Assembly (NCBI GenBank): GCA_014905635.1
Contig: JABVCE010000012.1
Span: 930,001-994,000 of the forward strand
DNA from: Scenedesmus sp. PABB004
Lineage: Eukaryota
DNA: 64,000 nucleotides
Direction: 5' to 3'
In this document: one piece after another, positions 1,649 through 59,000 of the stretch
How the letters are laid out: the number at the start of each line of letters is the position of its first letter
How positions within the stretch are numbered: position 1 is the first letter of the stretch
Made by a program: the position numbers and the translations under genes
Notes under the pieces: model-generated
Seen by the model: the letters and a program-made list of their open reading frames with translations, nothing else
The model's database searches: none
What the model was told of the DNA's origin: nothing

Positions 1649-2663
1649 TCAGTCGCCGCCGCCGCCGCCGTCGACCACTGCGGCGCCGGCGGCCCGCACC
1701 GCGTCCAGCGCCGCCTCGTCGGTGAAGGGCTGCAGCTCCCACAGCTGCGCAAACGCCTCCAGGTGCTCCGCCGGGGTGTCCAGGCGGATGCTGGCCGCCG
1801 CGAGCTCCTGCGGCAGCGGCGTCAGCGGGTCAGCGGCGCGCGCCGCCGCGCGGGCGGGGCGGGCGAGCGCGCACGTGCGCACAGGGGCGCGCACCATCCA
1901 CTGCAGGTCGCGCTGCAGCCCGGCGACGGCCGCGCCCAGCAGCAGCGCAAGCTCCTCGGCGCTCGCCGGCGGCTGAGGCGGGTCCGGGCTCTGCTCTGCC
2001 GCGTCGCCGCCGTGCTCCGCCGCTGCTCCGTCGCCGTCGGCGACGCCCGGCGCGGCCAGGCCGTCGACCGCACCGGCGCCAGCAGCCGCCGCGCCCTGCT
2101 CGCCGACCGGCGCCCGCGCCAGCGCCGCGTCAGCGCACTCCGCCGCGCGCGCCTGCATGCCGCGCAGGCCCGCCGCCGCGGCCGCGAGCGCCGCCTGCAG
2201 CGACGCGAACGCCGCGTGGCTGGCCGCGGGCAGCTCAGGGTCCGGCTTGGGCACGGGGCGCTGCAGCTGCTCCAGGTAGGCCGACAGCTGGAAGGAGGGC
2301 GCCTGCGGCGGCGCGTGCACCGGCAGCGGCGGCGGCGCGCGGCGTCGCGCGTGCGCCGCTGCTGCCACGCGCTAGCCGGCGCCGCTGCTGTTCGCCGCGG
2401 CCCGCCCTTCTCGCACCAGCTCCTCCAGGCGCTGCAGAACCTTGGGCAGCGCCGGGACGCCCTGCGGCGGCTGCAGCTGCGCGAGCGCGCCCGCGAGGCC
2501 CGCCAGCGCCGCGCCGCCCGCCGCCACCGCGTCCTCCCACTCCTGCGGCCGCGGCGCGAGCGTGAGGGGCACGGGAGGCTGGGGCCGCGATCAGCCAGCG
2601 CCGCACGCGCGCCTGCAGGTGCTCGCAGAAGCGGGTCACGGCCAGCGCTGCGCCGCCGCACAT
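1649..2663 (-). CDS. hypothetical protein (about 4 exons)
   Basis: Exons MCGGAALAVTRFCEHLQ / EWEDAVAAGG...LQRLEEL / APSFQLSAYLEQL...LQRDLQWM / ELAAASIRLD...LWELQPFTDE join in frame. TGTAA poly(A) signal downstream at 1352-1356 (minus strand). Confidence 0.6.
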
Positions 2664-2902
2664 CGACCGAGCGTTCACGCGCGCAGCGGCGGCGGCGGCG
2701 CAGCTGCGGAACAAGTGCGGGGAGCTGCCTCTGACAGCAGGACAGCTGGTGCAGACAGCCGGTGGCGCGGCGATATCGCCGCGCTGAATCGATTGAGCAG
2801 GTGCGGCGGTTCGGGGTGAGTTAAAGTGTGGCCAACGCGCCGCCCGCCGCCGCACGCGCCGCCTGCCACCGCACGCACCGCCCGCCGCCACACTCCCGGC
2901 CC

Positions 2903-4932
2903 TCACCGCCCCGGGCCGCGCGCGATCGGCCAGACGCCGAACACACGCCCGCACCGCGCCGCAACAACCTCGTCGTATAAATTGACCGTCGGGTCGCAGT
3001 GGCCCGGGAGCAGCAGCAGCTTTGCCCCCAGCCCCGGCAGCGCCGGCGGCGGCGCCTGGTGCAGGCCGCGCGGCCAGAGCAGCACGGCGTGCTCGTCGCC
3101 GCCGTTGGCCACCTCGACCCCCTCGGCCGCGAGCTCGCGCAGCAGGCCCGCGGCCACGCTCGGGGCCTCGAGCAGCAGGGGGGCACCGCTGTCGTACGAG
3201 ACCGCCTTCTGCCCGGCGTCGCAGACCACGGCGCCGCGCGCCTCACTCACGCTCATCACCTGGGCCAGCACCCACAGCGCCTGCTCCCACTCGGCGCCGC
3301 CGCCGCCGGCCTGCCGGTTGCGCGCGTAGTCGGCATCGCCGAGCGCGAACGAGCCCGGCTGCACCTCGGTGAAAACGCCGCTGCCCGCCTCGAGCCTGCG
3401 CGCGCGGCGCGGGGCGGCGGGACGACGGGGCGCGGCGGGCTGGGCCGGGCCGCGCGCGCCGCGGCGCGCGGCGCCGCCGTCCGCCGCCGGCGCACCGGTA
3501 CGTGCCCGTGCCGCCGCCGGTCACGGTGCCGCACGCGAGGCCCGGCCCCGCCGCGATGGCCTCAACCGCCGCTGCCGCGCGCGCCGCGACGCGGGCCACC
3601 GCGGCGGCGCGCTCGCCGGGGTCGCGCACGTGCTGTATGCCGCCGTGGTAGGCCTGGACGCCTGGCGGCGCGCGGGACAGGGTTACGGGCCAAGGGAACC
3701 CTCGCCCCAAGGGTTCAGGGTTCAGGGTCAGGGGGCGCAGGGCTTGGCGGTGCTGTTCGGGGCTGCGCGCCGCGACGAGCGCGCGCCGCCGCACCCTGGA
3801 AGGTCACCGCGCCGCGCGTCTGCTCCGCGAGCTCCGCGACGAGGCCGGCGAGCGCGGCGGCCTCGGCGGGCGTGTCGACGCCGCACCTGTCCTGGCCGGC
3901 GTTGACCTCCACCAGCACGCCGACGCTCGTCTCCCACGCGCGCGCGGCGGCCGCGAGCGCCTGCAGCGGCGCGCGCGCGTCCACGACCACCGACACGCGC
4001 GCGCCTACGTCCGCGCAGCACGGCGCGGCTCGGCTTGGAGTCGTGCACTCCCTCCGCGGCGTGCCCGCCCCCATCCCTCCCCTCCCCGCCCCTCCCCCGC
4101 AGCCGCGCCACGCGGGGCGCCCCAGCTGGCCAGCGCTCGCACCCTGCGCCGCGAGCGCGGCGAGGCGGTCGAGCTTGGCCAGGTCCACCACCTCATTGCT
4201 GACGAGGACGTCGGCGATGCCGCCCGCGACGAGCGCCTCCGCCTCGGACACCTTTTGCGCGCACACGCCGCCCGCGCCCACGTCGCCGAGCAGGCGCAGC
4301 TGCAGCGCCGCGAGGTGCGGGCACTTGTGGGCCTTAGCGTGCGGCCGCACCGCGACGCCCGGGTGGTCGGCCGCCATGACGCGCCGCAGCTTCAGGCAGT
4401 TGGCCTCAAACGCTGCGCGCGGCGCCGGCGGGAGGCGCTGCTGGCCGGACGCGGCGGGGCGGCGCGGGAGGGTGCTCCCGGACGCGCCGCACACCACCCA
4501 GTGCCAGGGCCACCCAGGGCCAGGGCCCTAACGCCCTGGCCCAGTGCGGGCGCGGGAGGGGCACTCACCGTCAAGGTCGACGACGAGCGCCGGCGTGTCC
4601 ACCTCCGCCAGCGGCGCGCCGAGGCGGGCGCCCGCGCTCGCCGAGGCGGCGGCGCGCCGCGCGGCCGGCGCCTGCACGAGTGCCCCCGGCCTGCTGGGCG
4701 CGGGTAAGGTGGTTGGCGGGGCCAGGCGGCGGCGGGCGGCGGCGGGCGGCGGCGCGGCGGTGGGCGGCAGCGGCGGTGCGTGCAGCCAGCAGCGGGTCGG
4801 CCGTGCGCCCCGCAGGCGACCGTGTTGGTCTACGGCGCCGGCCGCGCCGCACCAACTGCAGCCGCGAGCCTGCAGCAGCCCAGGCCGCGCCGCCGCTGCT
4901 GCTGCTGCCATCTGCCGCCCCAGCGCGAGCAT
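2903..4932 (-). CDS. D-threonine aldolase-like PLP enzyme (alanine-racemase-type fold, DSD1 family)
   Basis: Motifs VDTPALVVDLD, RPHAKAHKC (PLP lysine), GVCAQKVSEAE, VEVNAGQDRCGV, QAYHG, VTGGGTGT, EVQPGSF, DAGQKAVSYDSG, GDEH and PGHCDPTVNLYD. Four GT-AG introns. N-terminus looks like a transit peptide. Confidence 0.9.
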
Positions 4933-5190: not shown

Positions 5191-6296
5191 ATGCGCGCGA
5201 ACGCCCTGCAGCCGCGCTCGGCGCAGGGCGCCTGCGCTCGGCCATGGTCACCGGCGCGCGTGGCCTCGGCGGTGGCGCCCGCGCCGCGGCTCGCCGCGGC
5301 GCGGCGCCGGCGGGCGGCGGCGGCGCCACGAGCGGTGCCGGCCACAGCCGCTCCGCCTGACCGGGCGGAGGAGCCGCCGCTGCCCGCTGGCGCGCTTGAC
5401 CGGGACCGGTCGCACGAGACCGACTACGTGGTCGTCGGCAGCGGCATCGGCGGTGAGCGCGGCCGGCCGCCGCGGGACGCGCCGCCGCCGCTGTCAAGCC
5501 TGCGCCACCGCTGCCCCGCGCGCCAGGCCTGTGCTGCGGCGCGCTGCTGGCGCGCTACGGCCACAAGGTCACGGTGGTGGAGAGCCACTACCTCGCGGGT
5601 GCGCACCCGCGCCCGTGCTGCCGCGCCGGGGACTGGGCGGCGGCAGCGCTCGGCGGAGCGCAGCGGGCTGGGCTTGAGGCGGGGCGCCGTGGCGGCTGCG
5701 TCGTCACCGCGCGCAGGCGGCGCGGCGCACAGCTTCAAGGTCGGGGGCTTCACCTTTGACGCGGGGCCTAGTTTCCACATGGGCCTGAGTGATCCGCCCG
5801 GCGCGAGCAGGTGCGCGCCCCGCGGCGCGGCGCGCCTGGCGGCGGCCAGGGCCGCGCGGCGCGCGGGAGCCAGCGCGCGCGCACGGCCGCCGCCGCCGAG
5901 CGCGCGCCGCCGGCCGGCGCCGCAGGAACCCGCTGAAGCAGGTGCTGGACCTGCTGGGCGAGCGCGTCGAGTGCAAGCGCTACGACCAGGCGCGCCGCGT
6001 CGCTCGGCGCGCGCCGCGCGCGGCCGGCCAGGCAGCGGGGCCCGCGCGCTGCCCGCCTCCACAGCCATTGACTGCCGCCGGCCGTGACGCCGTGACGCCC
6101 CGCCGCGCCGCCCCGGGGCGCAGTGGGTTGTCTACGACCCGCAGGGCCGCACCTTCCCCGTCGTCGCGGACGGCGCCGAGTATGCCGGTGCGGCGCGCGG
6201 CACACGGCGCGCGGCGCGCCGGCAGGGACGGCGGCGACGTCCAGGACGGCAGGGACAGCAGGGCCAGCGCCCCGCGCCCACCCGCCTGACTGCCGC

Positions 6297-6346
<50 letters not shown>

Positions 6347-8485
6347 GCCGCCGCCGCCGCCGCGGCCAGACATGATCCGCCGCGTCGGCGGCCCCGACGC
6401 GCTGGCGCAGTGGCGCCGCCTCGAGGCCGCGATGGCCCCGCTGCAGCGCGGCGCGGCGCTCTTCCCCGCCGCCGCGATCCGGGGCGACCTCGGCGTGCTG
6501 CTCACCGCCGCGCGCTTCTTCGGCCCCCAGCTCGCGCTCACCGGCCTCGTCGCCGGCACGCTCACCGTGCGGCGCGCCGCGCCGGCGGGGCGCGGCTGCG
6601 CGCTGCGCGCCGCGCACCGCGGCCCTGGAGCGGGCCGCCGACCTCGCCGCCGCGCCGCGCCACCCCCGGCCAACCGTCCGCGCAGGGCCCGTTCAGCGCG
6701 GTGGTGGACCGCCACGTGACTGACCCCTGGCTGCGGTCACTGATCGACCTCGAGTGCTTCGTCCTCAGCGGCATGCTCGCCAAGGACACGCTCACAGCGG
6801 AGATGGCGAGCGCGCCTGCGCGGCGCGCGGCGCGGCGCGCTGCCGGCGGGCCCGGGCCGGCCCGGGCCGCCGCGCCGCGCCGCCGCCGCCGCCGAATGAC
6901 AGCATGATGCCAGCTGACCGCCCGCCCCGCCTCTGCCCTCGATCCCCTCCTCACTCTCATCCTTCACACGCAGGCCTTTATGTTCATGGAGCGCAGCCAG
7001 GGCAAGGGCCGCATCGACTACCCGGTGGGTCCGGCAGCCCGTCGGGGGCTGCTGGAGGGCTCAGGCGGGCATGGGTTTAGGGCCGAACCCCGCAGCGCGC
7101 CGCCGCCGCGCGGCCGCCCAGGGGCAGCAGCGGCGGCGCCCCGCCGCCTGCCCACCCTGCCGCCACCTCTCCGCCGCGGCGCGCAGATGGGCGGCAGCGA
7201 GGCGATCGTGGCTGCGCTCGTGCGCGGCCTGCAGGCGCACGGCGGCCGCCTGCTGCTGCGGAGCCACGTCGAGCAGATCGTGATGCAGGGCGGCCGCGCC
7301 GCGGGCGTCGCGCTGCGGCCGCGCGCGCCCGGCGGCGGCGCCGCCGGCGGCCGCGAGGTCATCCGCGCGCGGCGCGGCGTCATCAGCAACGCGAGCGTGT
7401 GGGACACGCAGCGCCTGCTGCCGCACGGCGCGGCGCCGCCCGAGTGGCGCCGCCGCGCCGAGGCCACGCCCACGGTGCGGCGCGCGCGCGAGCCGCCGGC
7501 TGACGGGCGGGACACCGTCTGTCCCAGCCCCCTTGCCCTCTCTGCGCTCCGCCCAACCGGCCCGCCCACGGGCCCAACCGGCCCGCCCACGCCCATCCAC
7601 CCCTCCGCCCGCCAGTGCGGGTCGTTCATGCACCTCCACCTGGGCATCGACGCCACGGGGCTGCCGCCGGGGCTGGACTGCCACCACCTTTTTGTCAACG
7701 ACTGGGCCGACATCGAGGCGCCGCAGAACGTGTGCATCGCGAGCATACCCACGCAGTTCGACCCCGACCTCGCGCCGCCGGGCAAGGCGGTCGTGCACGC
7801 GTGAGCGCGCGCAGCGCGCCCGGCGCCGCGCCGCGCGCGCCCCGCGCCCCGCGCCTTGCCGCGCCCCCCGAGCCGCGCCTGAGCCGCGCCCGACTGCCTG
7901 ACTGCCCCCGCGTCGCCGCAGCTACACGGCCGGCAATGAGCCTTACGCGCCGTGGGAGGGGCTGGACCGGCGCAGCCCCGAGTACGAGGCGCTGAAGAAC
8001 GAGCGCTCGCAAGTGCTGTGGCGGGTGCGGGGGCCGCCGCGCAGCCGCGCGGGGCTGGGGGAGCGGCGCGTGCGCCACGCCGCGCGCGCGTGGGCGCGCG
8101 CCCCACGCGCCTGCCCGGCTCCTCTGCCGCCGCCGCCGCCTGACCCGCCCGCAATCCCCTCCCGCTGCCGCCCCCGCCGGCTCAGGCGCTGGAGCGGGTC
8201 ATCCCGGACGTGCGCGAACGCGCGGAGCTCACGCTCGTGGGCACGCCGCTCACGCACGAGCGCTTCCTGCGCCGCCACCGCGGCACGTATGGGCCCGCGA
8301 TCTCGGCGGCCGGCGGCGCCGGCTGGCCGAGCAACGCGACGCCCGTGCCGGGGCTGACCGTCGTCGGCGACAGCACGATGCCGGGGATCGGCATCCCCGC
8401 TGCCGCGGCGAGCGGCATGATCGCCGCCAACGGCCTCGCCCCGGTCTGGGACCACCTGCGCACGCTCGGCGAGCTGGCGCTGTAA
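5191..8485 (+). CDS. carotenoid isomerase (CRTISO)-like FAD-dependent oxidoreductase, phytoene dehydrogenase family
   Basis: DYVVVGSGIGGLCC (FAD-binding), ESHYLAGGAAHSF, FDAGPSF, DYPMGGSEAIV, SFMHLHLG, GTPLTHERFLRR..GTYGP, GDSTMPGIGIPAAAASG. 12 exons, transit-peptide-like N-terminus, TAA at 8483-8485. Confidence 0.9.
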
Positions 8486-8845: not shown

Positions 8846-11457
8846 ATGGCGAGCGCGGAGGAGCTGCAGCGCAAGCTCAAGGACGCGTGAGACTGCGCCG
8901 TCGCGCTGCGGCGGCAGCAGCACGCGACCCAGGCGTCGCGCCGCTGCCGCTGTCGGGTGCCGACCGCGCGCGCTCGCCGCCCGCAGCGTCAAACAGTACG
9001 AGGGCAAGCTCGCGGCGCTCAGCGCGCTCAACAGCGCGCTGCAGAAGGAAAATGAGGAGCTCCGGGCGGACCTGGAGGAGGCGTCGGCGCCCAAGACGGA
9101 CGAGGGTGCGCGCACGCGGCGCGCCGCGCCGCTGAGCCCGCCAGCGCGGCCGCCCGGTCACGCGACGCTCGCGCCGTCGCGCCGCAGAGCTGGACGCGCT
9201 GGAGCTCAAGGAGGAGTTTGCGCGCCGCCTGGGCGAGCAGCAGCGCACGATCGACATACTCAAGGCGCGCGGCGCCGCCGCCGCACGGGGCGTGCCGCAG
9301 CGGCCGCGTGCCGACGCGGCGGCGGCGGCCGACGCGAGCCCCCCCCCCCTCCCTCGCGCCGACGCGCCCCGCCGCAGGACACCAACGCGCGGCTGCAGGC
9401 CAAGGTGCGCGACGCCGCGGCTGGCAGCACCGCGACCGAGGCGCAGGTGTCGGCCCTGCAGGAGAAGCTCGCAAAGCAGCAGTGAGCGCGCCGCGCCACC
9501 GCGCCGCCGCTTGCCGCCGGGCGGCACCCCTGCGCGCAGCTCGCGCGCAGCTCGCACGCGCCGCGACACGCGTGCACGCCCGCGCCCGCGCAGGCAGGAC
9601 GGCGCGGCGCTCGCGGCCAAGGTGGCCGAGCTGGAGAAGGGCGCGCGGCGGCTGGGCCACCGCGTGAAGGAGGTTGAGAACGAGCGCGACCGCGCGGCCA
9701 GCCGCGCCGAGGTGCTGGCCATTCAGCTCGAGGAGGCGCGTGGCGAGCTCGCCGCGGCGGCGGCGTCCGCCGCGCGCGCGCTCGCCGCGGCGCAGGCGGA
9801 GCACGCCGACGCGGCCGAGGCGGCGCGCGCCGCCGCGGCGGGCGAGCGCGCCGCGCTCGAGGCCGCGCTCGCCGACGCGCGCGCCGCGGCGGCGGTCGGC
9901 AGCGAGGCCGCCGCGGCGGCGGCGGCGGCGCGCGAGGCGGCGCTCGAGGCGGCGCTGGGCGACGCGCGCGGCGCGGCGGCGGCGCTGCAGGAGGCGCAGG
10001 GCGCGGCGGAGGCGCGGCACGCGCGCGCGCTCGGCGCGCTGCAGGAGCAGGTGCGCGCGCTGGAGCGCGAAAAGCAGGAGCTGCTGGCCGACTCGGGGCA
10101 GGCGAGCGGGTCGCTGATGCGGCAGATACAGAGCCTCGCGGCGGAGGCCGCCGCGGGCGCGGCGCGCGCCGCGGACGCGGAGGCGGCGCTGCTGTCGCGG
10201 CTGCGCGCCGCCGAGGTGGCGGCGGCCGAGGCGGCCGCCGCGGAGCGCGACGCGGCGGGGCGCGCGGCGTCGGCGGAGGCGGCGGTCGAAGCTGCCAAGG
10301 AGGCGGCGGCCGCGGCGGTGCAGGTGGGCTGCGAGGGGCGCTGGGCGCGGGGCTGCGCGGGCGGCGGGCGGCGGCGGGCGGGCGATGCCGCACGCTGCGC
10401 CCCGCGCGCCGCCCACGCGTGCGCCTCCGCCGCCGTGCCCGCGCCGCCCGTGCCGCGCCGCAGGAGTCCGCGGGCCTGCGGCTGCGTCTCGATTCGGCGC
10501 AGCGGCACAGCCGCGCGCTCGAGGCCGAGCGCAACGGCGCGCAGGACCGGCTCGCCGCGGCGCAGGCGCGGGAGCAGGCGCTGCAGCAGGAGCTGCAGCA
10601 GCAGCAGCGGCAGCAGCAGGAGGCGCTGTGGGAGGCGGCGCAAAAGGCGCAGCTGCTGGCGCGGGAGCGCGAGGAGCTGCAGCGGCAGCTGGCCAGCGCG
10701 ACAGCGGCGGCTGCCGCGGCGGCGGAGCGCGCGAGCGCGGCCGCGGCGGGCGCGGCAGCAGCAGCGGATGAGCGCGGCGCCCCCGTGGGCGGCGGCGTTG
10801 CCGAGCGGCGGCAAGGCTCGGGCGCGTACACGCTGCAGGGCCTGGCGGGCCTGGGCCTTGACGACGGCAACGGCAACGGTGTTGGCGGCGCGCCCGCCGA
10901 CGCTGACGCCGGCGGCGGCGCAGACGGGCTGCCGCGCGCCGCCTCGGCTGGCGGCAGCAGCAGCGGCGCGCTCGCCGGCGCCGGCGCGAGCGCGGACGCG
11001 CTCGCGCGCGCGCTCGGCCGGCTGCAGGCGGAGCTCGCGGCCGCGACGCGGCAGCGCGATGCCGCGGGGAGCAGCTGTTCGAGGCGGTCACGCGCGCCGA
11101 CGCGGCGGCCGCCGACGCGGCCGCCGCGCGCGCGGAGCACCGCGCGCTCGAGGACAAGGTGCGCCGCGGCGCGTGGCGGCGCGCCCCGCCCGCGCCCCGC
11201 CCAGCGCCGGCAGCGCGCCCGCACCTGACCGCGCCTCCCCCGCTGCGCCGCAGCTGGGCGTGGCGCTGGAGATCATCGGCGAGCGCGCGCTGCGCATCGA
11301 GGAGCTGCAGGCGGACGTGGCAGAGATGAAGGAGATCTTCAGGGCGCAGCTGCAGGAGGCGGCCGCGCAGCTGGAGGCCGCGCAGCGCGCGACAGATGCC
11401 GGCGCCGCGGCGGGCGGCGGCGGCGGCGGCGCGGAGGGGCACCGCCACGGCGACTGA
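8846..11457 (+). CDS. TMF1/golgin-candidate-5-like coiled-coil protein
   Basis: Long A/E/L-rich coiled coil. The C-terminal exon LGVALEIIGERALRIEELQADVAEMKEIFRAQL matches the TMF C-terminal (TATA-binding) domain consensus. N-terminal ELKEEFARRLGE. Confidence 0.8.
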
Positions 11458-11633: not shown

Positions 11634-14600
11634 TCACGCAGTGCCGCCCGCGAGCAGCCCGCCCCGCGGCGGGGCCATCGCCGCCGCATAGTCCGTCATC
11701 AGCCGCCGCCGCTCGCCCGCGCCCATGCTGCGCAGCGCCTCGCACAGGTCAGCCACGTGCTGCCCGCGCCACAGCGCGAGCGACGCGACGATCGCGCCGC
11801 CCTGCTCCGCGACGGTCGCGGCGGCCTCGAGCACGGCGGGCGGCGCGGCCGCGGCCGCCGCCTCGCGCGGGTCGGCCGGCGCCGCGTCGGCCGGCGCCGC
11901 GTCGGCCGGCGCCGGCGCGGGCTGCCGGCGCTGCGCAGCGCCGGACGGGCTGCGAGGCTCAGCCTTCAGCGCCGCGCGCCGCGCGCCCGGCGTGCCGCTA
12001 CCTGCCGCTGGCGCGGCCGCCGGCGTGAGCGGCGGCAGCGCGGGCGAGCGCCCCAGGCCGGCCGCGAGCATCTCCTGGAAGCCGCCCTGCAGCTCCGCGG
12101 CGCCCTCGTCGTCCGAGTCGGACTCGACCGTCGTGCGCGTGATGGCACGCAGCCGCCCCTGGTCGAGCGGCGCCAGGAACTGCGGGTGCAGAGCGGGCAG
12201 AGGGGAGGGGGACGGCTGGTTGGGCGGGCAGGCGGCTGCGGTCGCGCGTCCGCGGCAGCGCCGGCCGGGGCGCGCCGCGCGGCGCAAGCGCGCGGCGCTG
12301 GGTGCACCCGCGGCCCGCGGCCCGCAGCCCGGGCCCCGGCCACGCTGGCGCGCGCGCCTTGTCGTGGCGGTGCATGTGCATGATCAGCCCCTCGTCCTCC
12401 AGCGCCGCCATGGTCGGGTCGTCCAGCGCCAGCGTCGGCGGCGCCGCCAGCGCCGCCGCGGCGGCAGGGTCCGCCGCCGACGCGGCAGGCGGCGCATCGT
12501 CGTCGCCGTCGCTGCTGCTGAGCATGGCGTCGCTGCCGGGGTGGGCGCCGGCGCCGCCCGGCGCTGCCACGCCTGCCGCGGCCGCGTCCGCGTCCGCCTC
12601 CGAACCGCCGCCCGCGAGCCCCGGCACGGCGGCGAGCGCGTCGGCGCTCAGCGGCAGCGTCTCGGCGGCCAGCGCGGCCGCGCGCGCCGCGCTGTCGTCG
12701 CCGCGGGCTGCAGCCGCCGCGGCCGCCGCTCCCGGGTCGCTGATGTCGTCGTCGTCCAGCACCTGCCGCCGCCGCTTGCCGCGGCCCGAGCCGGGCCCCG
12801 CCGCCGGGCTGCCGTCCTCCGACGCACCGCCCTCGTCACCGTCGCCGCTGGGCCCGTCCGGCGTGCCGCCGCCGCCGCCGGCTCGGCCGAGCCGGCGCTT
12901 GGCGCGGCCAGTGGCGGCGGCGCCGGGGCTGCCGATGCCGCCGCGCGGCTCGTCGCCGCCGTCCTGTATGGCCGCGCCGACCGCGCCCTCCAGCTCCGCC
13001 ATGAGGCTCTGCGGCTCCGCCTCGAGCTCGCCCACGTCCACCAGCTCAAACGCGCGCCCCGCGGCCGCCGCGGCCGCCGCGCCCGCCGCCTCTTCGGCCT
13101 CACGTGCCTGCTCGGCCTCGTGCTCCCGCGCGCGCGCCGCGAGCTCCGCCGCCAGGCGCGCGTGCTCGCGGCTGCCCTCCTTGTAGGCCTGCGCGCGGGC
13201 GGCGCGCGGGCGCCGGCGCGCGCGCTCGCGCGGGCGCGGGCGCGGGCGCGGGTGCGCCCCGCTTGCCGCCTCCGATCGGGCCAACACCGCGCCTGCCCGG
13301 CGGCGGCCGCCGCGCGCCGCGCACCGCCAGGATGTTGCGCGTCACGACGGTGCGCCCGCTGAAGCGCAGGAGGTTGGAGAGGCCCCACAGCTCGCCCCGC
13401 TTGGTGGGGTCGCCCTGCGGCCCCGCGCACGCGCGCGGCGCCAAGGCGTCTCAGCCCCGTGCCGCCGCCCCGCGCCCCGCCCCGCGCCCCGCGCCCCGCC
13501 CCGCCGCGCCGCAGCGCCTCGCGCCACGCCGCCGGCGCGCCGGCGCCGCGGCCACGCACCTGCACGCCCACCCAGTAGCGCGCCTCCTGCCGGCCCTCCA
13601 GCACCATGTTGGTCTGCTGCTGCTTGTAGATCTGCCGCCGATACACCACCTCCTCAAGCGTGCCTGAACCGCCGCCGCCGGAGGGGCGCGGAGGGGCGCG
13701 GAGGGGCGCGGAGCGTCGGAGGGTCAGAGGGCCGGAGGCGAGGCCGCGGCGCGCCGGCAGCGAGCCCGTGCGAGGGCAAGCGCGCCCCCCGCACCCGTGG
13801 CCACGAGGCGGTACACCTCAACGTCGCGCGTCTGGCCCATGCGGTACGCGCGGTCCTGCGCCTGCAGGTCGCTCGCGGGGTTCCAGCTCGGGTCAAACAC
13901 GACCTGTCGCGCGACGCGCGCGTGGCGTGGCGGGGCGCTCGGCAACGCCGCCGCGCCGCGCCTCCGACGCAGCTCGCGCCGCGGGGCTGCCAAGCACAGC
14001 GCCGCGCCGCGCCGCGCGGCGGCCGGCCGCACCACTTTGTTGGCGGCCTGCGCGTTGATGCCCACGCCGCCTGCCTCGGTGGACATGAGGCAGAGGAAGA
14101 TGCTCGGCCGGCTGTTGAACGCGTCCACGACCGCCTGGCGGCGCTTCGCGGGCGTGCTGCCGTCGAGGCGCACGTAGTCGTACCCCGACCGCCCGACCGC
14201 GGCCTGCGGCGGTCGCGGGCGCCGCGGGGCTTGGGCGTTGCGCGGCGGGCCGCGGAGCTGGGGCGCCGCAGCGTGCGCAGCGCGCCGCGCCGCGCCGTGA
14301 CTGGCGCCGCGCGCGAGCGATCGCTCGCAAGCCATGCGAGCGTGTGTGCAAGGCTCCCCGGGCGTCGCCTCACCTCTATGAGGTTGAGGCAGCGCGTGCT
14401 GCGGCTGAACACAAGCACCTTGTTCTGCGCGCCGGGCTCGTCCGACCAGCGCTTGAGCAGCGTCTGCGCGGCGGCGGCGGCGACGGCGGCGGGGCTCGGG
14501 CGCGCGGCCGCCCGCCGAGCTCCGAGGCCCAGCGCCCGGGCCCGGCGAGCGCCGACCTGCAGCGCGGCCATCTTGCCGCAGTGGGTGTCGTCGCTCTTTT

Positions 14601-17600
14601 GCAGCCAGCCGCCGTCGTTGGCGACGGGGCCGCCCAGCGCGGCCGCGTCGTCGCCGAGGACGAGGCGTGACAGCGCCAGCTCGTACTCAAACTGTGGCGC
14701 GGCGGCAAGGGCGGCAAGGGCGGCGGGCGCTGAGGCGCCCGCGGCGTCGCTGCTCGCGCGGCCGCGTGTGCACGGGGCTGAAGCCCCATCCCCGCCGCGC
14801 GCGCGCCGCGCGCGCGCCGCGCGCGCGCCGCGCGCCGCGCCGCGCCTGGCCCTCGTCCGTCTCCTGCAGGCCCGCGTCGGGCCTGATGAGATCCAGGTGG
14901 TTGCTGCGTGTGCGTGTGTGCAGGGGGAGGCACGCAAGGCACGGGGCGCGGCGGGCGCAGCAAGCAGGGTTTTGGAGTCAGCGTGGGGCACCCCGCGCGC
15001 GCCGCCGGCGCGGCGCGTTGCCCGCTCGCCCGCTCGCGCGCCGCCGTCCGCTGAACCCTGAGCCCTGAACCCACCTGATCTTCTGCAGCACGTTGATGGC
15101 GGGCAGCATGATGCAGTAGGGGCAGATGAGCCTGCGCCCGAGGCAGGGGGCGCGCGAGGGCGCAGGGGGCGCGCGGCGGCGTCGGGCGGGGACGCGGCGG
15201 CGGCGGCGGCGGCCCTGCGTCGCGCCGCGCGGCGCTCCGCCATGCCCGCGCCCGCGCCCGCGCCGCACGGGGGGTTGCGGCCAAGGCTCATGTAGTACTC
15301 GATGCAGCCGTACGGGCGGTGATACTTGCAGTCCTCGTCGTCGCAGTCGCACATGTGGTAGCGCGGCCACAGCACGCCGCCCGCGTCCGGCGGGACCATG
15401 CCCTCCGACCTGTTGGGAGGCGATGTGGCGGCGGGGCGGGCGCGCGCGGGGCGGGGTGGGGAGGGGGGGGCGTTGACGCGGCGACGCGGCGCGCGGGCGC
15501 GGCCGGGCGGCGGGCCGGGACCTGGCGCTGGCGCGGCGGGGCCTCTGCCCCGCGCCCCTGCGCGCACTGGTAGCAGCAGGCGATGCGCTTTGAGCCCGAC
15601 CCGCAGTCGCAGAGGCGCCCCGCGCGGACGAGCGCCTGGAAGTCGGGGCTCGCGAGCGTGCGGTCGTACGCCCTGCGCGGCCGGGCGCGCGCGCGGGCGG
15701 GTCAGTCAGTCTGCTCGGGGCCGCGCCGCCGCGCCGCCCGCCGCGGTGACTGGCTGACGCTGCTGACACTGCTCGCGGCCGCCCTGCGGCGCGCCTGTAC
15801 TGCAGGGGCTTGAGCGCGGTGAAGACTATGACGTCGCGCTTGCGGGGCAGCTGGTCGGCGATGATGGCCTTGGTGCGGCGCAGGTACACCTGGCGAGCAG
15901 GTCCAGGGAGGGCCGCCGGCAGTCAGGGAGAGGGCGGAGGGCGGCGCGGCGTCAGCGAGATGGCGGAGGCGGAGGGGGGCGGGCCGATGGCGGCGGCGGC
16001 GGCGGGCGCCGCGGCCGCGCCTTGCTCAGCGCGGTCTGCAGCTTCACCAGCCGCTCCGCGCCCTTCTGCTGCTGCCACGCCGCCGCGGTGCTGCTCTGGC
16101 CGACGCGGATCGGGTTGCTGTAGTACCTGCGGTGGCGCGGCGCGGCGCGGCGGAGGCGCGGCGGCGTCGGCGCGCGCTGGACGCGCGCGGTGGCGCAGCC
16201 CCGCGCCCCCGAGCTTCGCACGCGCGCGCGCGCTCCCCGCCCGCTCACTCCTTGAAGGCGTCGCGGTCGCCGAGGCAGCCGGGGGAGAGGAGGTTGAGGA
16301 TGCCCCAGAGCTCCTCGTGCTTGTTGGGCATGATCGTGCCTGCCGGCAACGCACGGCAACCACAGCACGGCGAAGGGGTTTGAAACGCGTCTCGCGGCCT
16401 CGCCCCGACCGCCGGGCGCCGCGGCACGCACGCGCGGCGCGCGGCTGGCGGCGGCGGGCGCGGCTGGGCGCGCGGCGCGCACCAGACAGGCCGTAGCGCA
16501 GCCCCGGGAGGCGCGCCGCGGCCTTGTAGGTGGCGCTCTTGGGGTTCTTGAGCTTGTGCACCTGCCAGGCATGTGCGTGCACGCACGGCGGCAGCGGCAG
16601 CAGCGGCATCATCAGCGGCAGGGGGCGGCCGGCGGTGGGCGGCGCGGGGGTCAGCGCAGGCGGCGGGCACGGGCGCGGGCAATGCGGGGCGCTGGGCGGG
16701 CGATGCGGGGCGCGGCGGGCGTGCCTCGTCAAAGATGGCCATGTAGGGGCGCATCGCTGCGGCAGCGCAAGGCGGCACGGGGCGGCGCGGGGCGGGGCGG
16801 CGTGGCGCCCTAAGGCGCGCTCCAAGCGGCGCGCGCGGGGCACGCACTCGGGCGCAGCGTGCGCAGCGCGCAGCACGCGCAGCACGCGCAGCACGCGCAG
16901 CACGCGCAGCGCGTGCAGCGCGCGCACCCAGGATGTCCTCAATCTTGTTGCGCAGCGCGTCGTAGCTGCACAGCACGACCTCGAGGCTGCCCAGCTGCGC
17001 GGCCTCGGCGACGCCGGGCGCGCCGGGGCCCTGGAACTTGCCGACCTGCGCGGCGGCAGTAGTGGCGGCGAGGGCGGCCAGCGGGGCGGGTCTGCGTGGC
17101 GGCGGCCGCGGCGCGCGCGAGCGGCGCGCGCAAGCGGCGCGCGCGGGGCGCGGCGTGGCGGCCCGCGCGCCCGCGCCTGGAAGTGGCCCCACTGGCTCAG
17201 CTCGCGCGCCCAGTTGTCGAGCACCGACGTGGGGGCCACCACGAGGATGGGCCAGCGAATGCTCGCCTCAAAGCGCCGCTGCTGCTGGCTGCCGCCGCCG
17301 CTGGCGCCGCCGCTGGCGTCGCCGCCGCCCTCGCCCTGCGAGCCCGGCTGCGACCCGCGCGCGCCGCCCGCCGCGGCCTCGGCGGCCGCGCGCTCCGCCT
17401 GCTGGCGCCTGAAGGTCGCGTGGCTGCGCGGCACCGCGTCGGCGAGCGTGCCCGTCTTGCACAGCAGCGCGGCAATGAACGAGACGGCCTGCGCGCCGGG
17501 CGGGCCGGCAGGGCGGGCGTGGCGGCGCGCGCGGGGGCTCGGCCGGCCGGCGCGCAGCGCAGGGACCGAGCGGCGGCGCGCGGGGCCGCGCGTGAGCCGC

Positions 17601-22927: not shown

Positions 22928-23077
22928 GTCAAGAGCCGCGCGAGGACGCTGGAGCGCCACAGGCGGGCGTGGGCCGGCCGCAACGAGGCCGCACCACCAA
23001 CACCTTCCCTGCGACGTCGCGAGGTCCCGCTGGCTCAAAACGCCTCGCTCACGTTGCCAAGCGCGTGGGCGCGCCCG

Positions 23078-32582: not shown

Positions 32583-33011
32583 GCGCGCGCGCGGCGCCGG
32601 CCGGCGCTGCTGCCTGTGGCGCTGCTGGGCGGGCGGGAGGGCCGGGGCGCCGTGCGGGGGCGTGCGTGCGGGCGGCGGTTGCCGCGCGGCGGCGCACGAG
32701 CAGCGGCGATCGCGCGGGAGCAGGCACGACAGGTGTTCGCTGCCCGGCGACGCCTATTTGCGTGTGTGTCGGCGGTGGTGTGCTGCCCGGGGCCCCGACG
32801 GATGAGAGGCGCCGGCGGCGGAGCAGCGGCAACTCACCGGACGCCCGCGGGTCTCAAGCGGCCGGGTCGTTGAGCGCGTGCCGCTGGCCCCGGTCCCCCG
32901 CATTCCAGAGCTGCGGCAGGGCTCGACAGCCGCGGCCTGTGACGACACGCACCGCCGGCGGGCGCGGCAGCAGCGGCGGCGGCACCGGCGCCGCGCGGCG
33001 CGGCGATCAAA

Positions 33012-41995: not shown

Positions 41996-42550
41996 TCACT
42001 CCTTGTAGTCCACCACGCCGTCCTCGCTGATCACGTAGCTCGCCTCGCCCTCGGCTGCGCGCACGGCAGTGGGGCCGATCAGACGCGCGCGCGTGCGAGT
42101 GCACGGGCTGGCGGCGGCAGGCTGCTCCCCCTCCCGCGCGCGCGCGCGCGCGCGCGCCGCACCGAGGGAGGGCGAGTCGACGACCTTGGCGACGCGCTGC
42201 TCGGCCTTGCCCTTGCGCAGGTAGATGCGCTGCGTCACTGCGCAGGCAGACGCGCGGCGCGGGCGGGCGCGCGGAGCGTTGGGCGCCCCCGCGCGCGCAG
42301 GGCACGCCGCGGCGCACCGCCCTCCCCCGCTCCCACGGCCGCCGCCCGCGCGCACCCGCGTGGGCGAGCACGTGGCCGCCGACGGGCTTCTTGGGGTCGA
42401 CCACAAACGTCATGCCGCCGCCGGGGTCGCTCATCACCTGGTTGGTCACCACCTGGTCGGGCCGGGTGCAGCCGGCGCGGCGGCGGCGGGCCGGCGCCGT
42501 CAGCAGCCGCGGGCATAGTGCCTAGTGCGGCGGCGGCGCTGAGCACAAGC

Positions 42551-42614
<64 letters not shown>

Positions 42615-44945
42615 ACCACCGCGAGGTTGAACTCCTCGGCCATGCGCTTGAGGCCCGCCAGGAACTGGCCGAGCCGCTGCTGCCGCTCCGCGAGCTCGCC
42701 GCGGCCCGTGAAGTCCGTCCTGCGGGCCGCCGCCGGCGCCGCGGCGCGCTCAGCGCTGTGCGCCCCGGCGGGCCGCGCCCCGCGCGCCGCCGGGCGGCAC
42801 GCGCCGCCCGTGCACGTGCGCGGCGCGCCGCGAGCGCGCGCGACGGCGTGCACAGCGTGCTGCCAGGGTCAGCAGCAGCACAGGGGCGGCTGCGCGCCTG
42901 AAGAGGGCCATGACTGAGTCGACGATGAGCAGCTTGAACGGGTCCTGCATCAGCTGCGCGCCCAGCTGCGCGCGCCGCGGCGCCGTGCGGCGCCGAGCGG
43001 CGCGCCCGGGCTCGGCGGCCTGCGGGCCGGCGGCCGCGCGAGCGCGCGCGCGCGCGTGCCGGCGGCGCGCCGCACCATGGAGAGCAGGGCCTCCTGGTTC
43101 TCCACGTTGTGCGCGCGCGCCCAGATGACCTGCGGGGCGGCAGCAGCACCCCCGCGCAGTGAGCCGCGGCGGGCGCGGCGCGGGCGCGCGGGCTGGGCGG
43201 CGGGCGCTCGTGCGCAGGCGGGCGCGCGCACGTTGTCGAGCACCGCCTGGGGGTCCAGGTTGTAGCGCGCCGCGATCGCCTGCGCGCGACGGCGGCGGCG
43301 GCGGGTGCGGCGGGTGCGGCGGCGGCGGCACCGTCAGGGCGCATGCGCCCAGCGCCCCGGCCCGCGCAGCGGCGGCGGCGGCGGCGCGTGCGCGCGCGCG
43401 GCGTTGACTGGGTGCCAGCCGGCACACGCGCCATGATGCGCTCCGGGCGGAAGGTCCCCTGGGTGTCGATGTCAGGCGGGCACGGCGCGCGGCGGCGGCG
43501 GCGGCGGCGGTCGGGCGGGCGGCCGGGGGGCAAGGAGCTCGCGCCGGCCGAGTGGGACAGCACAACCCAAACCCTAAACCCCAACCAGCGCAGCGCGGCG
43601 CTGGCGGCGCGCGCCCGCGGGGGCAGGCGGCCGCAGCTGGGGCAGGCCGGGCACGTGCGCTCGCGCGCGCCCTGCTCGAGCTCGAGCGGCGCTGCGCTGC
43701 CGAGGCGGGCGGCAGCCGGGGGCTGCCGCCCGCCCCCACCTCGGTGTCGATGTACGCCGCCTTGGCCGCGCCGCCGCCCTGGCTGATGGGGAGCTGCACC
43801 GTGACGCACATCGTGTGGCAGAGCTGCGTCTTGCCCGTCCTGCGTGACGCGCGCACGTGCAGGCGTGCGCGCGGCGGCGGCGCGTCGCGGGCGCGCCGGC
43901 GCCAAGCCAGGCGCCGCGGCTGCACCAACAGCACCCCCTCCTCTCACACACACGCACACCGCGCCGCGCACCTGAACTCGCCGTAGAGCTCGGTGATGCT
44001 CTTGCTCTCCATGCCGCCGCCCAGCAGCGTGTCCAGCGCGGCCGCGCCCGTGCTCACGCGCACAATCTCGCGCTGCCGCTGCGCGGCGCGGCGCGGCGGG
44101 GCGGCGGCTGGGGCCCCCAGCGCCGCGGCTGCGGCGGCGGCTGCGGCGGCGGCTGCATCGCGCGAGCAGGCGCGGCGCAGGCCGCGCCTTTTGCAGCGCC
44201 TCCGTGCCGGTCATCCAGCTGCCCACGCTGGTGAGCTTGCGCGCCGCCTCGATCATCTGCCGGCGGCGGCGGCGGCGGCGGCGGCGGTCAGCCGCGCGGC
44301 GGCCTGCCGGCGCGCCGGCAGGCGGCGGCCAGCCACCCCACAGACGGCGCGCACCTTGTCGGCCTTGGCCTCGGACAGGCCCTTCACCGCAAACAGCTTC
44401 TGCGCGCCGGCGGCGGGCGGCCGGCGGCGGGCGGGGCGGCGCGCGCTCGGCCGCTGCTGCTGCCGGGCGCGTGCCGGCGCGGCCAGGCCCCTGCGCCGCG
44501 GCGGCGGCGCGCCTTCTTGCTGGTCATTATGAGCGACTGCACGGTGTAGAAGCCGCCCTCCCGCGCCTTGCGCAGGTCGGCTGCGCGGCGGGCGGCGGCG
44601 CTCGCGCGCGGCCGCGCGCAAGGAAACCGTGGCGCGCCGCCGCGGCCGGGCGCGCCGCGCCGCACCCGCGCCGATGCCCATGTCGGTGAGGCACTCGATC
44701 TCCTGGAAGTCGTCCACCGCCACCTCCTCCTCGGCAGCGCTGCGACGGCGGCGGCGCGCGGCGAGCAGCGTGGGGCGGCGCGGCGCGCGAGCAGCGGCGG
44801 GGCGGCGGCGGCGGTAGGCGGCGCGCTGGCGCTCCCAGGGCGCGGGAGAGGCAGCGGGGGGTGGTTCTGGGGCGGCGCGAGCGCCGGCGCACCCGTCCAC
44901 GGCGAGCTGGCCCTCGACGGCGACCTGCTCGACCGCCGCCGCCAT
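41996..44945 (-). CDS. DMC1: meiotic recombinase DMC1
   Basis: [13 protein letters not shown] (Walker A), [19 protein letters not shown], and DMC1-type [34 protein letters not shown] and RKGKAEQR. About 14 introns. TGTAA at 41847-41851. Confidence 0.93.
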
Positions 44946-45884: not shown

Positions 45885-49721
<3,837 letters not shown>

Positions 49722-50565: not shown

Positions 50566-50599
<34 letters not shown>

Positions 50600-55835: not shown

Positions 55836-56029
55836 TGCAGCGGCCCTTCGAGCGGCGGCTGTGCGAGGCGAGCTGCCGCGGCTGTGCTGTGCGGCGGCGG
55901 CTCAGCGCGCTGGCAGCTTGGGGTCGGCCGCGCGGTGGTGCAAATGCCGCGTCACATGTTCCAGTTTGCTCAAACAAACAAACGATCAAAACAACCCAAA
56001 GTCACAACGTCGCCAGCACGCGCGCCTGC

Positions 56030-59000
56030 TCAGCGCACCCCTGCCTCGCGCAGCCGGCGCTGCACCTCCGCCGCCTCGTCCAGCAGCGGCTGCAGCGACT
56101 GGCGGCCCAGCAGCATCGCGGGCGAGAGGTAGAGCCGCGCGAGCTCGTCCTGCCGGCAGCGGCGGCGGCGACGGCGGCGGCGGTCTCGCCGCGCGCCCCG
56201 CGCGCCGCGGCCCTGCAAGCCCCCCCCCCCGGCGCCGCGCGCGCGCCGCTTGCCCCCGCACCTCGTCGACCGCCCCCTGCGCCTGGCTGGGCAGCCCCGC
56301 CGCGGCGGGCGCGTCGCCGCCGCCGCCGCCGGCGGCGCCGGCGGCGGCGCCGTCGCTGCCGCTGCGCGCCGCGTGCTGCGAGACGAACGCGTCCATCGCC
56401 GCGGCCTCGCGGCTCGACGGCAGCGTGAGCGGCCGCTCCAGCAGGCGCCCCGCCTGCGGGCGGCGGCGGCGGCGCCGCGGTTCGCGCGCCGGCCCGGCTG
56501 CCCGCGCCGCGGCCGGCGCGCGCGCCGCGCACGCCGCGCCGACGCCGCCGCTCCGCCGCGCGCGGCGCGGCGGCGGTGGCGCACCAGGACGTGGAACGCG
56601 AGCACCGCGACCGCGAGCGGCAGCAGGAGCAGCGCGGCCTCAAACTTTTTGATGCCCAGCAGGCAGCCCATCACCGCAACAAAGAAGTACACCCCCACCA
56701 GCACCTGCGGCGCGCCGCGGCGCGGAGCGGTGCGCGCTTGGCTCGACGCGCGCCGCCGCGCCGCGCAGCCCCCCCCCCCCCCACACACACACGCACACGC
56801 GTACGCGCACGCATGCACACGCGCGCGGTCACACGCCCACCTGCGTGAAGACCTGGCGCCAGAGCGTGCCGGCGCCCTCGTAGGGGTGGCGGTAGACGTA
56901 GAGCCACTGGTAGCGCGTTATGACGCTCGCGACCGAAAAGTAGAGCAGCGTCACGGGCGCGATGAGCGGGCTGGCGACGCAGAAGACCTGCGGGCGGCGG
57001 CGGCGCGGCGGGCGCGGCGGCGGCGGAGCCGGTGCGAGGGCGGGGGCATGTGCGTGTGGGTGTGTGAGGTGTGCGAGGGCGGCGATAGGGGGCGCACAAC
57101 GTCAGGGGGGGGGGGATGAGAGCGCGGGCGCACCAGGCCGAGCAGCAGCACGAGCGTGTGCAGCGGCAGCGACACGCCGAGCCACTGCAGCTGCGACGCC
57201 CACGCGCGCCGCGCCGCGCGCGGGCTGTCGGCGAGCTGGCGGCGCAGCAGGAACACGCCGAGCGCGGGCAGGCGCAGCAGCTCCAGCGGGGCGCGCGTGA
57301 GGCCCTGCGGGCGCGCGCGGCGCGGGCGCGAGTCAGCTCCGGCGGCGGCGGCGCGGCGGTGCGGCGGCGGCGGCGGCGTGCGCGCACGCGTGCGCCGGGC
57401 GTGCGCGGGCGCTCAAGGTCCCCCGGCCACGGGCGCCAGCGCGGGCCGCCTCCCTAGGGACCCTAAACCCTAGAACCTGTGCCCTAAACCCTTAACCCTG
57501 AACCGCGCGGGGCGCAGTTCCCCCCTGCGCACCAGGAGGAGGATGTAGGTCGAAAAGAAGCTCGCCTGCTGCGGCGCGCTCACGCCGAGCAGCGCGACGA
57601 GGCGGTGCGGGTCGTCCAGCAGCGCCTGCAGCTGGCTCAGCGCCGTGCCGCTCACAAAGCTGGCGGACGCAGGTGCGGGTGCGGACGGCGCGGCGGGGTG
57701 GGGCGGGGGCGCGCGGGGGCAGGACGCGGCGGCGCAGCTCGCGGGCCGAGCGCGCGCCGCGCCGCCCACGCTGGCCGCCCCTCACCTGAATATGAACACC
57801 TGCCAGGCGGGCGGGCGGCGGCGGGCGGCAGCTCAGCGGCAGCTCAGCGGCGGTGCGTGGCGCGGCGCGTGCGAGCGCACGTGGCACGGCGCGGCGGCGC
57901 GGCGGCGCGGCGGGTCACCACGAAGAGCAGGACGACGTAGTGCATGCCGATGAGCGTGGCGTCCGCGGCGGCGAGCCCCGTCGCGCCGCTGCGCCGGATG
58001 AGCCAGTGCAGCACGGTGGGCAGCAGGGCGAGGAACACGAGCAGCGCGAGCGACGGCAGGAAGCCCTGGAGCAGGTTGGACACGACCGGCAGCTCCAGCA
58101 GCGGCGCGAGGAACGTGATCTGCGCCGCGGCGCCGCGGCGGCGCGCGGGCGGCGCGCGGGCGGCGACGTGACGCGGGGCGACGTGGTCGGCGGCCGCGCG
58201 CGCCTCGCGGGGCGCGCCGCGCGCGCCGGCGGCGCGCCCTGGCCCTGCCCGCGGCGGCCGGCGCCCGCCGCGCGCCCGCCGCGCGCCCTGGGCCCCACGC
58301 GCCTTGCGCAGGTTGTCCATGTTGACCGGCGCCTGCACGAGCGCGACGACAGGCGCGTAGAACAGCACGAGCGCGGTGAACGCAGCGTACACGCACAGCC
58401 AGCGCAGCGACACCTCCCATGCGCGCAGCCCGAGCGCGGGCCACACGAGCTCGCGCGGCGCCGGCGCGGGCGCGATCGCCCACGCGGTCTCGTCGTACGA
58501 GTGCAGCGACGCGGCCGCGAGCGTCGCGACGAGCTGGCTCCTGCGGCGCGGCGGCGGGCGTTTGCCGCGGCGGCGGCGCGGCCGTTCAGGCGCCGGCGTG
58601 CGGGCGGCGCGCAGCGGCGTTCAGCGCCGCGCGGCGGGGCCGCGAGCTCGGCGGCGCGCCTGAAGGTCACGATCGCGGCGGGGCGTGGCAGCGTGTCGCG
58701 CGCGACCGCCTGCAGCGCGAGGACCTCGTCCAGCTTCACGGTCAGCGCCGCGGGGTAAAACTCCAGCGGGTCGACCTGGCGCGCGCGTGTGGTGCGCGCG
58801 GTGCGCGTGTGGTGCGTGCGCGGCGAGGCTGCTCGGCGGGGGCGCGCCGTGAGGCCCGCGCGGCGGGCGGGGCCGGGGCCGGGCGCGGCCGCGGCCGCGG
58901 CGGCGCGCCGCGCACCATGCGGGGCGCGACGCCGTAGCGCTCGACCGCCCACGCGCCCCAGCGCGGCGGCACGACCAGCACCTGCGGCGCGGCGGTCCCC

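Follow-up and report, generated by a model that had tools for sequence, protein, structure and literature searches.

The 64-kb stretch of contig JABVCE010000012.1 examined here (64,000 nucleotides, positions 930,001 to 994,000; referred to as the window) carries genes in which many introns begin with GC instead of GT and end in AG (GC-AG introns). Its composition is extreme for nuclear, intron-rich eukaryotic DNA. The G+C content is 75–81% in every 4-kb step, and stretches matched by Pfam have ∼95% G+C at third and ∼52% at second codon positions. The introns are GC-richer than the exons: their interiors are 6.4% A, 46.8% C, 40.2% G and 6.5% T (87% G+C, with a C:T ratio of 7.1). Exons cannot be defined from open frames, because stop codons are rare and all six frames hold long open reading frames (57 of at least 25 amino acids across the six frames in 4.5 kb; 524 of at least 70 amino acids in the window). 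A composition-only hidden Markov model (HMM), with three codon positions per strand and a non-coding state and without knowledge of splice sites, returns 100 coding segments for the window. Pfam matches to these segments identify genes for a D-serine-dehydratase-like protein, a CRTISO-like FAD oxidoreductase, a TMF-like coiled-coil protein, an SNF2 helicase, a GH1 beta-glucosidase, an LSM protein, an FGGY kinase–ribulose-phosphate 3-epimerase (RPE) fusion, an ankyrin protein, a Rad51/DMC1 recombinase, a poly(A) polymerase (PAP), a VTT-domain protein and an OSCA/CSC1-like channel.

A first-pass annotation of this DNA had proposed 22 GC donors in unrelated genes. All 22 read G/GC on the given strand (a slash marks the exon–intron or exon–exon junction throughout), and the sequence context described for them is correct: 20 follow an exon-terminal AG, with 6806 and 43431 following TG, and 20 begin GCGCG, with 6806 reading GCGAG and 16724 reading GCACG. 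The motif AGGCGCG is uninformative alone, since 81 copies are found on both strands of the window; it is the coincidence of the motif with exon ends that counts. HMM segments end within 2 nt of 9265, 12357, 15794, 16020, 17176, 17668, 27445, 27766, 48750 and 58302, and within 3 nt of an eleventh proposed donor, 6806. Of the 22 donors, 14 are confirmed by homology (two in the CRTISO-like gene, six in the SNF2/ERCC6L2-like gene, two in GH1 and four in DMC1) and 58302 is confirmed by comparison with solved structures. Six (9265, 12357, 33927, 34391, 48750 and 58659) are consistent with the data but not pinned, and 2612 is doubtful. The proposal that GC-AG introns are frequent across unrelated genes thus stands, with exact placement of 14 of the 22 sites by homology in four genes and with the loss of confidence in 2612.

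Two simpler procedures were of no use: ranking donor/acceptor pairs by coding score alone gave no discrimination, as GC dinucleotides are everywhere, and low-complexity matches swamped the output of plain tblastn with algal homologs. Proteins were instead aligned to the DNA with a spliced aligner (BLOSUM62, affine gaps, intron cost of 20) that required an AG acceptor and accepted a GT or a GC donor, the latter at an extra cost of 10; runs with extra costs of 0 and 18 were also made. The aligner uses no splice-site matrix and is therefore blind to the AG/GCGCG context. The homologs had independent origins, being proteins from algae, plants and fungi together with genes from cyanobacteria and from bacteria. 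For the four genes, GT-only models score below models with both donors in every homolog run tested: 583 against 710 for DMC1, 893 against 960 for SNF2 (homolog P0047), 373, 474 and 464 against 429, 500 and 492 for GH1, and 1057–1137 against 1111–1173 for the CRTISO-like gene. As a control, GC was swapped for six other dinucleotides at equal cost. GC gave the biggest gain over GT-only in all four genes (127, 67, 26 and 36 units, against 102, 42, 19 and 20 for the best alternative dinucleotides); the partial gain of CG and others arises because they lie one codon away from the true junction in the GCGCG context. When the donor was left free (non-GT cost of 10, nine runs), 38 non-GT donors were chosen, 24 of them GC and 22 of these at proposed sites; the background frequency of the GC dinucleotide is 22% (13,901 of ∼64,000). 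With the close homologs available for DMC1 and the CRTISO-like gene, nine of the ten non-GT donors in the free-donor runs were proposed GC sites. A separate ab initio parse was made by exon chaining within 18 gene spans, using a donor matrix trained on 36 curated GT donors only and a set prior for GC.

The SNF2 gene (minus strand) was aligned to four homologs (P0047, P0011, P0001 and P0020); a single exon of this gene used as a query, restricted to 'longer' lengths, gave no match. Its top homologs belong to the ERCC6L2/'Switch 2' type and come from green algae (Closterium, Micractinium, Monoraphidium, Chlorella and Elliptochloris) and land plants. On the basis of hit lists, as opposed to a phylogeny, the host is probably a green-lineage case separate from the haptophytes and pelagophytes. 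The intron at 17489–17668 (CAG/GCGCGG) begins right after helicase motif I, GLGKTVQ, joining GKTVQ/AVSF; it is placed by all four homologs and by three of three free-donor runs. The intron at 15673–15794 (CAG/GCGCGC) has the same support from homologs and free-donor runs. All four homologs also place the introns at 17046–17176 (CAG/GCGCGG), where there is no frame-compatible GT within 45 nt, and at 15890–16020 (AAG/GCGCGG), where an HMM boundary falls at 16020. The intron at 16562–16724 (GAG/GCACGC) splits the DExH box as IFDE/VHKLKN and again has no frame-compatible GT within 45 nt. It is placed by two of the four homologs; the remaining two skip the 32-nt micro-exon upstream. Three of the four homologs place the intron at 14686–14845 (CAG/GCGCGG), which also has no frame-compatible GT within 45 nt and for which the acceptor may be 14691 rather than 14685. 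In the non-conserved C-terminal part of the gene homology is uninformative, and the intron at 12180–12357 (AAG/GCGCGC) is supported by composition, with an HMM boundary at 12357, and by the ab initio parse, which retains it at a GC prior of 0.3%; within 45 nt there is no GT in a compatible frame. A new candidate in the N-terminal region, 17798–17915 (GAG/GCGCGT), comes from the ab initio parse at both of its main priors (1% and 10%), in a region where the SNF2 homologs disagree.

In the CRTISO-like gene (5400–8485, plus strand) the alignment contains 11 introns, two of them with GC donors, which is the proportion that had been annotated. One exon used as a query found no relative among genome contigs, and a second yielded five cyanobacterial homologs. 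The intron at 6806–6973 (ATG/GCGAGC) is placed by all five, holds at a GC cost of 18 and has no GT alternative closer than −45 nt. That at 5990–6123 (CAG/GCGCGC) is placed by four of the five at a GC cost of 10 and is lost at 18. The last exon of this gene is 60–70% identical to cyanobacterial proteins (52 loci, mostly from Nostoc, Microcoleus and their relatives), and this similarity suggests an origin from the plastid ancestor. The GH1 gene (minus strand) was aligned to three bacterial homologs. All three, and both free-donor runs, place the intron at 27600–27766 (CAG/GCGCGC), which has no frame-compatible GT within 45 nt. Two of the three place the intron at 27303–27445 (CAG/GCGCGC), which joins HWDMPQ to VLQD and has an HMM boundary at 27445; the third takes another GC 12 nt away. 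The three junctions that the first-pass annotation gave as examples (GKTVQ/AVSF at 17668, IFDE/VHKLKN at 16724 and DMPQ/VLQD at 27445) are thus all placed by homology.

The DMC1 gene (minus strand) was aligned to three homologs, the closest of which, P0121, is a transcript-derived protein of another organism with ∼75% identity. Spliced alignment reproduces the four GC donors that had been assigned to this gene. Three hold at a GC cost of 18: 42720–42897 (CAG/GCGCGC), which joins VMALFR to TDFTGRGEL and is placed by all three homologs, and 44079–44187 (AAG/GCGCGG) and 44400–44512 (AAG/GCGCGC), both placed by P0121. The P0121 alignment is gapless across the 44512, 44187 and 42897 junctions. The fourth, 43280–43431 (ATG/GCGCGT), is found with P0121 at a GC cost of 0 and at a cost of 10 with P0130 only (one of three homologs). 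Two other introns of this gene, 44581–44665 and 43130–43231, both with GT donors, lie after P0121 residues 39 (phase 1) and 193 (phase 0) and are shared with metagenomic DMC1/RAD51 relatives of 65–68% G+C (L079, L082, L115 and L116), where the donors are also GT. None of the compared metagenomic DMC1/RAD51 relatives has an intron at any of the four GC positions. A further metagenomic DMC1/RAD51-like gene (L111:1381–2265; 67% G+C, 41% identical to P0121) has GCGAGT or GCGGGT donors in three of its four predicted introns and looks like another GC-rich eukaryote with frequent GC-AG introns. Micro-exons occur in two genes, one of 32 nt at 16725–16756 (minus strand) in SNF2, before the DExH box, and one of 27 nt at 43432–43458 (minus strand) in DMC1; both precede a GC donor, and neither was detected by the composition HMM or the ab initio parse. 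Tandem donors, a GC followed in frame by a GT 6 nt away, are seen at 43425–43431 (G/GCGCGT/GTGC) and at 2606–2612 (G/GCGCGC/GTGCGG), both on the minus strand. Such pairs could serve as alternative 5′ splice sites, with two residues gained or lost.

Outside these four genes the best-placed intron is in the OSCA/CSC1-like channel gene (minus strand), at 58120–58302 (AAG/GCGCGT). Both flanking exons can be aligned to solved OSCA/ERD4 structures: residue 79 of the upstream exon matches residue 395 and residue 1 of the downstream exon matches residue 397 of 5z1f_A. The same is found with 6oce_A, so that the junction is continuous within one residue; a GT that lies 4 nt downstream would break the frame. 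For the second GC intron of this gene, 58541–58659 (CAG/GCGCGC), alignment to solved structures fixes the frame of the downstream exon and the upstream exon has no match among them; the intron is kept at a GC prior of 0.3% and there is no GT that could be joined to the same acceptor. In the PAP gene, the intron at 48621–48750 (minus strand; CAG/GCGCGC) has an HMM boundary at 48750, and the exons on either side correspond to neighbouring regions of solved PAPs. The intron at 9265–9377 (plus strand; AAG/GCGCGC) in the TMF-like coiled-coil gene has an HMM boundary at 9265 and remains in the ab initio parse at a GC prior of 0.3%; its support consists of composition and that parse. An intron absent from the earlier set, at 39968–40130 on the minus strand (CAG/GCGCGC), lies in a gene of unknown family; it too is kept at a GC prior of 0.3%, with an HMM boundary at 40132 and no GT to the same acceptor.

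Two of the unpinned donors are in the kinase part of the FGGY–RPE gene (32974–37250, plus strand). The intron at 33927–34108 (CAG/GCGCGG) comes from a hand-built model and from the ab initio parse at a 1% prior, and that at 34391–34488 (CAG/GCGCGC) is placed by one of six distant bacterial homologs and has no frame-compatible GT to the same acceptor. Three small exons of the hand-built model fall between anchors 145 and 219 of the xylulokinase profile and have about the total length expected. From its residue 2 on, the exon that follows 34391 can be aligned to solved FGGY kinases; the exon before 34391 has no match among solved structures. Bacterial FGGY kinases are too distant to place either 33927 or 34391, and one query against five cyanobacterial genomes found no FGGY relative. 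In this gene an FGGY-family sugar kinase is apparently fused to an RPE; if true, the fusion would link pentulose phosphorylation and epimerization in a single protein.

Two further features of the introns are recorded here. Long (GCC)n/(CGC)n triplet tracts are present in the introns at 42453–42616 (minus), 6188–6369 (plus) and 39968–40130 (minus) and recur almost unchanged in unrelated genes, over as much as 62 nt at 98% identity. The introns at 7475–7615 (plus), 27130–27219 (minus) and 4005–4142 (minus) have lengths divisible by three and contain no in-frame stop, so the frame would stay open on read-through; in the HMM output they are partly fused to exons.

The frequency of GC donors was estimated in several ways. 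The four homology-annotated genes, which were picked partly for holding proposed sites, contain 14 GC and 32 GT donors (14/46 or 30%, Wilson interval 19–45%). The ab initio parse assigns GC to 22 of 132 introns (16.7%) at a GC prior of 1% and to 28 of 134 (20.9%) at a prior of 10%, and recovers 34 of the 36 curated GT donors and 19 of the 22 curated GC donors. Of the 22 GC calls at the 1% prior, 19 follow AG; those lacking AG (5254 and 10966, joined by several others at the 10% prior) are probably false. An earlier, whole-strand version of the parse gave ten GC donors in 56 introns at the 1% prior, with a score of 3504 against 3257 for GT only. As a minimum, the 15 verified GC sites over ∼140 introns amount to 10.7% (Wilson interval 6.6–16.9%), and at least one well-supported GC donor is present in nine of the 18 gene spans. 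GC-AG introns therefore make up roughly 15–30% of the introns in the window, far above 1–2%. All 58 curated introns end in AG, 36 of them in CGCAG; as the aligner requires AG, this shows only that AG acceptors suffice to give gapless alignments.

The verified GT donors (n = 38) have the consensus G/GTG(C or A)G, with G at −1 in 79%, G at +3 in 97%, C (68%) or A (18%) at +4 and G at +5 in 100%. The GC donors (15 verified and eight others) are more uniform, having G at +1 and +5 in 23 of 23, and G at +3 and C at +4 in 22 of 23 each; positions +3 to +5 read GCG in 21 of 23 GC donors and 26 of 38 GT donors. The clearest difference is on the exon side. AG occupies positions −2 and −1 in 21 of 23 GC donors but in only eight of 38 GT donors (Fisher p = 1e-7), and restricting the comparison to verified GC donors leaves 13 of 15 (p = 1.7e-5). 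Elsewhere in the intron the two classes look alike: a CTGAC branch-like motif is found in nine of 58 curated introns (four of 22 GC and five of 36 GT), and a CGCAG acceptor in 16 of 22 GC and 20 of 36 GT introns, a difference that is not clear. None of the 23 listed GC donors resembles the U12 donor box [AG]TATCCTT, and a comparison of the window with Rfam gave no snRNA or other family at its gathering score. Minor introns and minor snRNAs are reported to be absent from Chlorophyta (PMC11347168).

On this evidence we consider it likely that these are ordinary U2-type introns of the major spliceosome, belonging to the GC-AG subclass, and that they are driven by GC pressure with exonic compensation through U1. 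In the U1 pairing register, an A at −2 and a G at −1 add an A–U and a G–C pair. The analysis shows the junctions, how frequent they are in the window, the AG preference at exon ends and the composition of the introns; a T-to-C direction of change, a contribution from U1 pairing and a role for selection are inferences. An extreme drive towards G+C, through mutation bias or biased gene conversion, would keep turning the T at donor position +2 into C. The C would be tolerated, and hence would persist, mainly at exons ending in AG, where the exon-end A–U and G–C pairs with the 5′ end of an unchanged U1 snRNA could offset the lost U–A pair at +2. The other donor positions (G at +1, +3 and +5) would stay as they are in the dominant GTGCG donor. 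A rough calculation with assumed typical values, in which the usual 1% is scaled by the C:T ratio, predicts 5–9% GC donors, which is the right order of magnitude.

The first-pass annotation had put forward GC pressure with exonic U1 compensation, and this part of its explanation is indirectly supported, fitting both the AG excess and the composition. It had also described the +2 position as relaxed, and here the data differ. Without constraint, C would be seven times commoner than T at this site, yet about five-sixths of the introns have T at +2; the retention of T at this position, when T makes up 6.5% of intron bases, indicates a position under pressure and not one that has been freed. Both observations bear on the alternative that had been offered alongside, namely that the spliceosome itself is altered, so that the 5′ end of U1, U6 or their protein partners accept a C at +2 and GC has become a co-equal donor. 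In favour of this, the GC fraction (16.7% ab initio and 14/46 in the annotated genes) exceeds the 5–9% obtained by scaling, and GC is the majority donor in Emiliania huxleyi. A U1 able to pair with C should, however, abolish the need for AG, which GC donors require far more often than GT donors; the AG excess fits an unchanged U1 with a mismatch at +2 and argues against an altered one. T is, moreover, retained at +2 in most introns. We thus regard an altered spliceosome as unlikely. We give equally little credence to a related and broader proposal: that GC-AG is a second regular donor class with an obligatory exon-terminal AG, reaching ∼30% in the conserved and probably weakly expressed SNF2 and DMC1 genes, possibly with adaptation of U1 or its partners, and representing a third independent origin of GC-dominant splicing after those in haptophytes and pelagophytes.

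Several points weigh against the reading as GC-AG introns of the ordinary U2 type. All counts refer to the 64-kb window, which is one stretch of a single contig, and every junction has been derived from homology or composition rather than from transcripts. The observed GC fraction is two to four times the scaled prediction, which leaves room for a contribution from something other than mutation bias. Ascertainment could explain part of the AG rule, as GC donors without AG are harder to recognize in non-conserved genes; in the four homology-annotated genes none turned up consistently. The statement in the first-pass annotation that the frames can be joined only through GC donors was too strong, since six sites (2612, 43431, 5990, 15794, 17668 and 48750) have an in-frame GT within 9 nt. 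At 2612 (intron 2543–2612, minus strand) there is an in-frame GTGCGG donor 6 nt downstream, the GC intron is absent from the ab initio parse and the gene has no recognizable family, so the canonical GT explains the site better. At 5990 the in-frame GT is 9 nt downstream with a weak consensus (GTCGCT), and homology excludes it only weakly. The same is true of the GT 6 nt downstream of 43431, which would add two residues, where the GC junction is gapless against P0121 with an advantage of nine units. Homology mildly disfavours both of these GTs. At 48750 there is an in-frame GT 9 nt upstream that homology does not exclude: the GC model gives a linker four residues longer than in solved PAPs, and the GT model one residue longer. 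This GT (GTCGAG) lacks the G at +3 and the G at +5 that are seen in 37 and 38 of the 38 GT donors, respectively, and the GC donor at 48750, though not pinned, is likely.

These sites favour the view that the majority of GC calls are artefacts of modelling, with the cell using nearby GTs and making slightly longer or shorter proteins: six of 23 sites offer such a GT, that at 2612 is a perfect GTGCGG and that at 48750 brings the linker length nearer to the solved PAPs. Against this view, a frame-compatible GT within 45 nt is lacking at five sites, and a further four have none to the same acceptor; a GT-only model costs 26–127 score units per gene despite the 10 charged for each GC. The GTs at 17668, where the alternative 6 nt upstream would remove residues VQ, and at 15794 drop conserved residues and are rejected by four of four homologs. 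That artefacts account for most of the calls is in our view very unlikely.

Two other origins for the GC donors were considered. Introner elements are known from some algae, and the great uniformity of the GC donors might be expected if the GC introns were copies of a mobile introner family carrying its own donor. In an all-versus-all comparison of the 58 curated introns, however, only (GCC)n-type repeats rose above shuffled controls, and these are common to GT and GC introns; the two classes are also alike in median length (147.5 for GC against 130 for GT) and in G+C content (87.9% against 86.6%). We therefore rejected an introner family, which seems highly improbable. Alternatively, the C at +2 could be a base-calling or polishing error, with T read as C in a GC-rich assembly. 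We found no support for this, and it is conceivable only in that extreme G+C is hard to sequence. Such errors would not favour sites after AG and would also affect other constrained T positions, and the 14 homology-tested exons flanked by GC donors align without frameshifts; we consider that sequencing error can be practically discounted.

The preferred explanation, U2-type GC-AG introns under GC pressure, has a practical side. A gene finder that expects GT would mis-model about one intron in six and would thereby touch about half of the multi-intron genes in the window. Because GC donors are so frequent, annotation of this genome must allow them, ideally only after AG. More generally, the window suggests that extreme GC pressure can push a near-invariant base of a splice signal towards C, and the exon-end AG rule offers a simple, testable picture in which U1 pairing would buffer the change at +2.

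In animals and plants GC-AG introns account for about 1% of introns; they are of the U2 type, and their other donor positions match U1 better than average. The introns described here share with them the U2 type and the GC at +1 and +2, and differ in a frequency that is 10–30 times higher and in a donor core of GCGCG in place of GCAAGT. The figure of about 1% for most eukaryotes, on which the first-pass annotation relied, is fair as a general value and leaves out published exceptions in GC-rich algae.

One of these is Emiliania huxleyi. There, GC-AG is found in 56% of 241 manually mapped junctions, nine of them confirmed by RT-PCR, and the authors ascribe the shift to a G+C content of 65% (PMC4028052). 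Both cases have algal nuclear DNA rich in G+C, a large share of GC-AG introns (here counted in the window) and acceptors that remain AG. They differ in that GC is the majority donor at 65% G+C in E. huxleyi, whereas here it is a minority of ∼15–30% at ∼80% G+C. E. huxleyi is, in addition, a haptophyte with RT-PCR proof, while the best homologs of the window are green-algal or plant proteins and its junctions are read from DNA and protein sequence. For the pelagophytes Aureococcus anophagefferens and Pelagomonas calceolata, ∼14–17% of introns are predicted to be GC-AG, again ascribed to high G+C, and the same passage gives 0.3–2% for plants and metazoans and 4% for Cyanidioschyzon (bioRxiv 10.1101/2024.10.30.620910). 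The ab initio fraction of 16.7% is nearly equal to the pelagophyte values in that passage. In contrast to the 0.1–0.9 introns per gene given there, the genes studied here have 10–20 introns and come from another lineage, and the exon-end AG rule is not described in the pelagophyte passage. The literature searched contained no report of elevated GC-AG in Chlorophyta, which is no proof that none exists. The link between GC-rich algal genomes and GC-AG introns has thus already been published for haptophytes and pelagophytes, and the window probably represents a new and apparently independent instance of it, in the green lineage.

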